The position numbers were made by a program. From IMG/VR virus record IMGVR_UViG_2703718788_000011: a DNA stretch of 37,108 nucleotides; one strand, written 5' to 3'. This document shows positions 34,801 to 37,108 of the stretch, in pieces (position 1 is the first letter of the stretch; every line of letters starts with the position of its first letter). This stretch comes from a virus (Duplodnaviria > Heunggongvirae > Uroviricota > Caudoviricetes).

Positions 34801-37108
34801 TCTGATCACTTTCCAGTTGGCTTTATTCCTGGAAGAGGAGCGAGAAGATGAAAACAGTTATTGTGCTTTTTGTTTTACTGCTGACAGGTTGTGCTTCTGA
34901 ACCTGCAAATCAGCGTAATCTTCTTACTCAGTTTGTCGGCAATAATGCCCCTGTAGATCCTGAACCCAGTCCAGTATTGGTTAATATCAGAAACGTTCTT
35001 ACAGGGGGGATAATCCGAAATCCTGTTGGTAGTGACTTTAATGTAAATAATTGGGTTATATCTGAAGTAAAGACTAATGATTTGGATTTGATATCGGCAC
35101 CGGGAGGGCATGTTCAGATTAAAAATCCTGATGGCAATGAATGCTTTGCTATTCTAAACGGGCAATTGGCAGTGGCTAAGCAGTGCTCTGAAAGCGACCG
35201 TAACGCATTGTTTACATTTATAACCAGTGATACTGGGGCTGTGCAAATCAAGTCAATAGGAAGCGGTCAATGCCTAGGGAATGGAGAGAGCATTACAGAT
35301 TTCAGATTAAAAAAATGTGTTGATGATCTTGGGCGTCCTTTTGATACGGTGCCGCCGGGGTTACTCTGGATGCTGAATCCACCATTATCTCCGGCAATAA
35401 TGTCTCCATTAACGAGCTGATCTGGAAAACGCGGCACGTTGTATGCAACTTGCCGCGGTTGGCTGGTAAGCTTTTCGATAGTGCGAGTATTGAATGATTT
35501 CCAGCCGTTACCGATTTTACATGTTTATTAGTGAACAAACCACTCGTCAGCAGACTCCCAGGTATCTTTCAGAGTCTCCTGAACAAATGTTTTTGCAGAA
35601 TCCTTATCTGCTGTGCGTGTAACAGAAAGCCCATCATTGCTGGTGGCTTTTACGATCACTTCTACATCGTCATAACGCTTACTGATGCGCCGAGTTAATT
35701 CTTCCTTTAACGCATCCACAGCACCGTTTGGCATTTTAGTCATTTTCTCTTTGGCTATGCAGATCTCAATACGCATAAAAGTCCCTCTATACTGTGTTTG
35801 TATACAGTATTATTTTTAACTGTACAAATAAACAGTGTCAAGGTGAGTGAGATGAAAAAAAACGGAGGTGTTTTTGTTACCCTTAGTTACAAATTGAAAA
35901 ACCCCAGTCGGTGATAACTGGGGTTTTTTAGAAGTGCACGTGCATTTCACGTGTATATTTTTGTCTTTTTTCAGTCCGACTACTGTCTGGCTTGTGTCCG
36001 TAAGTGGCTGTATTTATTGCTACTGTCCGGTTGTAGTCCTTCTTAAAGTGGTGGAGCTGGCGGGAGTTGAACCCGCGTCCGAAATTCCTACATCCTCGGT
36101 ACTACATGCTTAGTCAGTCTTTACATTCGCTTGCCAGCTGCGGACGGACACGCCACTAACAAACTAGCCTGATTAAGTTTTAACGCTTCAACCCCAGGCA
36201 GGGCTTCCACGCGATCTCTTTTGGGTTTGACCTCTCTTGATCCCCGTCCTAAGAGCGGAGGCTAGGGAGAGAGGGCTCTAAGCAGGTTATTAAGCTGCTA
36301 AAGCGTAGCTTTCGTCGTTTGCGACTATTTTTTGCGGCTTTTTACGAGGCCAACCGCCCCTCGGCATGCACCTTGGGTTTCGCAAATCCCGTCGAATCCA
36401 GAATCAGCCCCAATGTGTAACGGTAAGTATACCAGATTTATGAGCAGCATGACTAGCCCAAAAGGCGTTATCATCCTGGAATTAGCGCCTGCATAGTATT
36501 ATTTTTTTTCGATTAAGCAATGGGATGGCTACATCTGTGTCAGATTTGACAGTCGACAAGATGTTCATTCGCGCCACCGGATAGGGAGGCGCGGTGAGGA
36601 TTTGATTAGTATCGCTTATATAGGTTTAACGATGGGCGTTTTTCATGATACGCGCTTTATCCACCTGCCATTCGCGTTCTTTGATATCTGAACGTTTATC
36701 GTGCTGTTTTTTACCTTTGGCGACGCCGATTTTCACTTTGCACCAGGCATTTTTCCAGTACAGGGAGAGCGCCACTACGGTATAGCCTTCTCGATTGACG
36801 CGACCGTACAATGAGTCCAGTTCGCGCTGGTTGAGAAGTAACTTGCGGGTACGGGTAGGATCGCACACCACATGCGTGGAGGCCACAGCCATTGGCGTGA
36901 TGTTAGCGCCAAACAGAAATGCCTCTCCGTCGCGCAGAAGGACATAGCTGTCGCTGATATTGGCTTTTCCTGCGCGCAGGGATTTAACCTCCCAGCCTTG
37001 CAGGGCAAGTCCCGCTTCGAACTCTTCTTCGATAAAGTATTCGTGACGGGCGCGCTTGTTAAGCGCGATGGTCGCTGAACCAGGTTTATGTGCTTTTTTC
37101 TTCGTCAT

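Follow-up and report, generated by a model that had tools for sequence, protein, structure and literature searches.

The gene for a DinI-like protein of 82 aa, which lies beside the attachment site of a toxin-encoding prophage, is preceded by two tandem palindromes that both resemble proven LexA operators and overlap the predicted promoter of the gene. Our main reading, to which we assign a probability of about 0.85, is that a pair of LexA dimers keeps a promoter of moderate strength closed until LexA is cleaved in the SOS response, and that RecA filaments are the target of the DinI-like protein made thereafter. In an undamaged lysogen, one LexA dimer would sit in the -35/-10 spacer and the other over the start site, and RNA polymerase would be blocked. 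Upon DNA damage, RecA* would drive the self-cleavage of LexA, the promoter would open and the 82-aa protein would be made; by homology, this protein would bind RecA filaments and modulate their activity. The sites, their placement on promoter-like hexamers, their conservation, the family of the protein and the boundaries of the cassette are shown below; that LexA occupies the boxes, that the gene responds to SOS, that its product binds RecA and that prophage induction or toxin yield may be affected is what we infer. What is predicted here, on firm sequence grounds, is ordinary SOS regulation, and it involves no new mechanism.

The window, that is, the whole stretch of 37,108 nt that was analysed, is by its gene content a lambdoid Stx/CDT prophage integrated at ssrA. 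The A and B subunits of Shiga toxin are encoded at 8930-10165, while a CI-like repressor (960..1727) carries HTH and Peptidase_S24 domains. The presence of the latter domain fits SOS-triggered prophage induction, which is expected to proceed via RecA-stimulated self-cleavage of the repressor. The matrix scan described below finds no LexA-like site in the immunity region (385-1727). At the end of the window, cdtA, cdtB and cdtC on the plus strand (33215-35420) are followed by the convergent 82-aa ORF, a 270-nt spacer, ssrA and smpB. The original prediction had set the DinI-like gene next to two toxin operons; this is right for cdtABC, which is adjacent, but not for stx, at a distance of about 25 kb. 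Three isolates of E. coli from humans (2015C-4136CT1, 377323_2f and STECUZB006) match the region at 100% identity, each with the gene order cdtC, DinI-like gene, ssrA. The elements of the locus are listed in Table 1.

Table 1. Elements at the att-proximal end of the prophage, in window coordinates.
Feature	Position	Strand	Evidence and remarks
Terminator-like hairpin (35430-35457) and short U tract (UUUU)	35426..35457	-	Fold; ends the dinI-like transcript
DinI-like gene, 82 aa	35528..35776	-	ORF; Pfam PF06183; RefSeq 'DinI-like family protein'
Shine-Dalgarno sequence GAGGGA	35782..35787	-	5 nt before ATG; read from the sequence
Proximal LexA box (box 1)	35790-35809	.	TACTGTGTTTGTATACAGTA; 13 nt from ATG; over the predicted transcription start
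-10 hexamer AAAAAT of the dinI-like promoter	35812..35817	-	Consensus scan
Distal LexA box (box 2)	35818-35837	.	AACTGTACAAATAAACAGTG; 41 nt from ATG; within the -35/-10 spacer
-35 hexamer TTGACA of the dinI-like promoter	35836..35841	-	Consensus scan
Bidirectional hairpin terminator	35897..35928	.	Fold -26.2 kcal/mol, z = -4.9; 0/200 shuffles as stable
ssrA (tmRNA), prophage integration site	36049..36411	-	Rfam RF00023, 293 bits; RefSeq annotation

An E. coli-type LexA operator was taken to be a CTGT-N8-ACAG 16-mer (minimally CTG-N10-CAG) inside a 20-nt palindrome near TACTGTATATATATACAGTA. Exactly two CTGT-N8-ACAG matches are present in the 37,108-base window (0.59 expected per window), and both are the LexA boxes; the coordinates at which two such palindromes had originally been claimed are exact. 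The core is complete in each, with CTGT at 35792-35795 and ACAG at 35804-35807 in box 1, and CTGT at 35820-35823 and ACAG at 35832-35835 in box 2. Over the whole LexA consensus, box 1 matches at 17/20 positions and box 2 at 15/20.

For scoring, we used a symmetrised position weight matrix made from 18 E. coli K-12 LexA sites (recA, lexA x2, uvrA/ssb, uvrB, sulA, umuD, recN x3, ruvA, dinB, dinD, dinG, dinI, sbmC, yebG and tisB). Each of these known sites was located in NC_000913.3, and all 18 were confirmed in K-12 DNA at the expected promoter. The accompanying HI-like values were recomputed from the same 18-site set and are numerically not the published heterology index of Lewis et al. Box 1 has the top score in the window, 24.3 bits (HI-like 4.65), which falls between recA and uvrB; box 2 comes second with 20.9 bits (HI-like 7.02), between sulA and yebG. 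Scoring against a LexA matrix had been suggested as a check on the boxes, and on both measures they lie inside the range of the verified K-12 operators, which runs from 14.2 to 28.2 bits (leave-one-out) and from 1.9 to 12.0 in HI-like value. The third-ranked of the 37,089 positions in the window reaches 11.4 bits, and none of 200 mononucleotide-shuffled windows contains any site as good as box 2. The two palindromes are far beyond chance expectation. Some 700 nt separate the third-ranked site itself (8231-8250, CACTAGATGTTTTTACAATA) from stxA, which lies downstream of it; the score of the site is under that of every verified K-12 operator, the CTG/CAG core is lacking, and the site is probably meaningless.

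A consensus scan places a sigma-70-like promoter on the minus strand, with 10/12 hexamer matches and an 18-nt spacer, in which the -10 is weak (4/6). Read along the minus strand, the order upstream of the dinI-like ORF is TTGACA-CTGTTTATTTGTACAGTT-AAAAAT-AA-TACTGTATACAAACACAGTA-TAGAGGGACTTTT-ATG. Relative to this consensus-predicted promoter, box 2 occupies the -35/-10 spacer and box 1 starts 2 nt past the -10, and transcription would start at about 35805 on the minus strand. No plus-strand (divergent) promoter is found near the boxes in the same scan. The bidirectional hairpin between the 3′ end of ssrA and the dinI-like promoter is predicted to insulate the promoter against read-through from ssrA, and it probably supplies the ssrA terminator once the prophage has integrated.

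A 20-codon plus-strand ORF (35853-35915, MKKNGGVFVTLSYKLKNPSR) with a Shine-Dalgarno-like sequence points away from the dinI-like gene and ends at this terminator. It was considered as a gene and rejected: the lengths of an A-run and a G-run inside it differ among related loci and its frame is not conserved. Because these homopolymer lengths vary between loci, the ORF is probably non-coding. In the 5′ and 3′ regions of the dinI-like gene, no Rfam family reaches threshold, and the hits up to E 1 are at chance level, among them a weak one to mir-19 (E 0.07) over 35787-35840.

The ORF behind the boxes begins with an ATG at 35776 on the minus strand and had been described as dinI-like, which the protein comparisons bear out. 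Its product matches Pfam PF06183 (DinI) with 70.8 bits against a cut-off of 24.2, over all 63 positions of the profile, shares 46% identity with K-12 DinI, and matches the PDB DinI structures 1ghh/7ywa with an E value of 8e-13. Furthermore, its TWESADEWF aligns with TWESADDWF in the C-terminal helix of K-12 DinI; this acidic C-terminal helix is the RecA-interacting region of E. coli DinI. On the NCBIfam DinI equivalog NF007893, the 82-aa protein scores 72.5 bits, below the cut-off of 111, and is therefore a paralogue ('DinI-like') and not the chromosomal orthologue, in agreement with the RefSeq name. Given this homology, we expect the protein to bind RecA filaments and to modulate their coprotease activity. 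The terminator hairpin (35457) follows the stop codon (35528) after about 70 nt, and no ORF is found in this interval.

The operators were compared among 28 distinct promoter variants, drawn from 67 loci with sufficient upstream sequence. In each box, the CTG and the CAG stay the same in 28/28 variants, as do the AAAAT of the -10 and most of the -35, and the substitutions fall in the box centres, in the outer flanks and in the region past the -35. In some variants the boxes are weakened, to about 14 bits or to less than 12 bits (L095, L175). From centre to centre, the boxes are 28 nt apart in the window, but the distance shrinks to 27 nt in one locus and to 24 nt in phage LMessi, and this variability argues for two independently bound operators and against a strictly phased cooperative pair. 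In LMessi (L174, PP925823.1), the tandem promoter drives a different, MsgA-like ORF of the DinI family (88 aa, 2216..2482 on the minus strand; Pfam DinI 79.4 bits), with boxes at 2500-2519 and 2524-2543 that score 21.9 and 25.7 bits. The LMessi record carries no annotation of this ORF; in the region 2216-2543, a 196-aa ORF on the opposite strand is annotated instead.

The dinI relatives were surveyed by a DinI alignment scan with one genome per species (80 loci), in which a box was a site of at least 14 bits within 160 nt upstream. One LexA box is found in 68 of these loci, two in 6 and none in 6, so that 74/80 have at least one; those with none are mostly loci where the start codon could not be placed. 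The distance of a single box to the ATG is usually 18-21 nt. There is likewise one box at a related gene from a Klebsiella phage. The tandem layout at 13 and 41 nt occurs in only three of the 80 loci, all from E. coli/Shigella, and the encoded proteins are 98-99% identical to the query. Judging by these predicted sites, LexA control is a family-wide trait of the dinI relatives and the second operator is a derived feature of the phage cassette. Taken together, the quality of the sites, their placement on the promoter, the invariance of the half-sites, the DinI family of the product and the boxes of its relatives support the LexA repression and SOS induction that had been predicted for this gene.

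More than 200 phage records contain the segment 35426-35842, among them those of Stx1a, Stx2a, Stx2c and Stx2d converting phages and of cdtI, CP-1639 and mEp460. Among 80 IMG/VR loci, homology to the window breaks off on one side where the -35 hexamer has its outer edge (35841-35843) and on the other, in most loci, just past the terminator (35423-35435). The sequences past the -35 are unrelated to each other: most loci have the 3′ end of an integrase gene there, others an ssrA-type att region, and two or more additional contexts occur. The 3′ UTR and terminator (35426-35537) have homologous counterparts in lambda, HK97 and HK75, all of which are without dinI; in HK97, the counterpart is flanked by tfa and by the sib site that adjoins attP. 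The occurrence of the terminator segment in these phages without dinI implies that the promoter and ORF are an insertion upstream of a shared leftward terminator. By its predicted elements, 35426-35842 is a self-contained, att-proximal accessory cassette (a moron) made up of a sigma-70 promoter, a DinI-family ORF and a leftward terminator: a single gene is enclosed by its own promoter and terminator, and it is missing from this place in HK97 and lambda. A megablast search with just the 69-nt promoter gives matches in at least 1016 of 5426 complete E. coli genomes, about a fifth or more, with O157:H7 and O111 among them. In the record of mEp460 the promoter is annotated, but the operators are not.

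These data bear on other ways of reading the palindromes. It is unlikely that only the proximal box works for the dinI-like gene, with the distal box either a relic or in the service of a divergent transcript toward attR/ssrA. Most dinI relatives do have a single box, and the small plus-strand ORF with its Shine-Dalgarno-like sequence could hint at such a transcript. The distal box, however, is at 20.9 bits as good as sulA or yebG, lies exactly in the -35/-10 spacer and keeps its CTG/CAG in all 28 variants. As for the divergent transcript, a plus-strand promoter is missing, the sequence past the -35 is wholly different between phages, the frame of the small ORF is not kept and a strong terminator stands about 60 nt away.

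Considerably less probable still is that the palindromes are operators of a phage repressor, either the CI-like or the HTH proteins encoded at 385-1727, and not of host LexA. Although the prophage does encode a CI-like HTH/Peptidase_S24 repressor and a second HTH protein, nothing similar to the palindromes occurs elsewhere in the window, not even around cI-cro near 1727-1784, and the sites match the full 20-nt LexA consensus, beyond CTGT/ACAG. Moreover, the promoter is common to phages of many immunity and toxin types (Stx1a, Stx2a, Stx2c, Stx2d, cdtI, mEp460), and its spread through at least 1016 E. coli genomes fits a host-wide regulator rather than an immunity-specific one. We give the least credence to the view that the palindromes arose by chance or are hairpin-forming sequences of RNA or DNA, in either case without a regulatory role. 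Each box can fold into a short AT-rich hairpin, and the weak mir-19 hit covers both; however, conservation is concentrated on the LexA half-sites and the promoter hexamers, no Rfam family is matched at threshold, and 0/200 shuffles had even one site this good. A chance origin is excluded by the shuffles together with the conservation. The reading that remains preferred is that of two LexA operators on one promoter.

LexA repression of dinI is textbook knowledge. The prophage gene shares with K-12 dinI its Pfam family and a LexA box that overlaps the promoter just before the ATG; K-12 dinI, however, is preceded by a single box that overlaps the -10 at 19 nt from the ATG, whereas the prophage cassette has two, at 13 and 41 nt, on another promoter, and lies beside the att site of a prophage, unlike the chromosomal gene. 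Several LexA boxes at one promoter are also found in lexA (two), recN (three) and the colicin genes (two, overlapping). The box centres are 21 nt apart in lexA and 22 and 18 nt apart in recN (K-12 positions), as against 28 nt in the prophage cassette and 24-28 nt in its relatives. Multi-operator SOS promoters are more tightly repressed, and we predict that two good-affinity operators confer tighter repression than the single box of chromosomal dinI, and possibly later induction.

In Salmonella, the dinI homologues of Gifsy-1/2/3 are preceded by a LexA box, and replacement of this box abolishes their mitomycin-dependent induction (Lemire et al. 2011, PMC3121763). A survey of the Salmonella regulon gives the Gifsy homologues one box, 19 nt from the ATG, and a 4.6- to 23-fold induction with nalidixic acid (PMC3121763, PMC8072944). 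The Gifsy dinI-antirepressor (gfoA/gftA)-irsA operons resemble the cassette in that a prophage dinI homologue has a LexA box directly before it and a terminator-like palindrome further upstream (PMC3121763). However, the Gifsy loci lie 1.3 kb downstream of replication genes and their dinI homologue is followed by a small antirepressor gene that triggers induction (PMC3121763), whereas the cassette in the window is att-proximal. A dinI-antirepressor operon of the Gifsy type was considered for the window and rejected: no downstream ORF precedes the terminator, and the next gene, cdtC, is convergent. Given that the repressor of this prophage has a Peptidase_S24 self-cleavage domain, an antirepressor is not needed.

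DinI-like phage sequence under LexA control is likewise known from Tum of phage 186 and the split tum of PSP3/Fels-2 (PMC3121763). These are P2/186-type phages in which the DinI-like part comes with an antirepressor, as a fusion or as its partner (PMC3121763), whereas the gene in the window stands alone. In Klebsiella, LexA occupancy of the dinI promoter has been observed by ChIP (PMC10907235), and the dinI/DinR locus there resembles the cassette in having a LexA-controlled dinI mRNA with an extended 3′ end (PMC10907235). Klebsiella DinR, however, needs a Klebsiella-specific 3′ stretch (PMC10907235), while the 3′ UTR in the window is the segment shared with lambda and HK97 and has no Rfam match.

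In the literature, we found no paper that describes the promoter of the E. coli lambdoid DinI-like cassette with its tandem boxes. The sole textual occurrence found is a recombineering primer for an int deletion in an Stx2d phage, which includes both boxes and is presented without mention of LexA. EHEC ciprofloxacin transcriptomics list no prophage dinI-like genes, only chromosomal dinI.

LexA control of dinI, the Salmonella prophage copies included, was already known, and in having two operators and an att-proximal position the cassette varies this architecture only slightly. With it, the predicted SOS regulon of many pathogenic E. coli gains a gene that is carried by a prophage. An effect of the DinI-like protein on the coprotease activity of RecA, if there is one, could sway how readily antibiotics induce Stx/CDT prophages, which would be clinically relevant. 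A bolder proposal, which we regard as doubtful, is that the two-operator gene provides a prophage feedback on RecA*: the protein would appear only when SOS is strong, and it would change the rate at which Peptidase_S24 repressors are cleaved, both in its own prophage and in co-resident ones. Were this the case, the DinI-like gene would set the induction threshold and hence the Stx/CDT output. As a weaker alternative to such feedback, the 3′ end of the DinI-like transcript may yield a DinR-like regulatory RNA. When the Gifsy dinI homologues were removed by non-polar deletion, induction did not change significantly (PMC3121763), which makes a phenotype for the DinI-like protein uncertain.

Some further observations concern other parts of the prophage. 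The second HTH protein (142 aa, 385..813) is encoded on the same strand as the CI-like repressor. The cdtC gene (34848-35420) is called a frameshifted pseudogene by RefSeq in a strain with identical sequence; in the window it is an intact 190-aa ORF, 99% identical to and colinear with CdtC of phage cdtI. Two tRNA genes (10679-10829) lie downstream of the stx operon; the tRNA genes of Stx phages are usually located upstream of stx.
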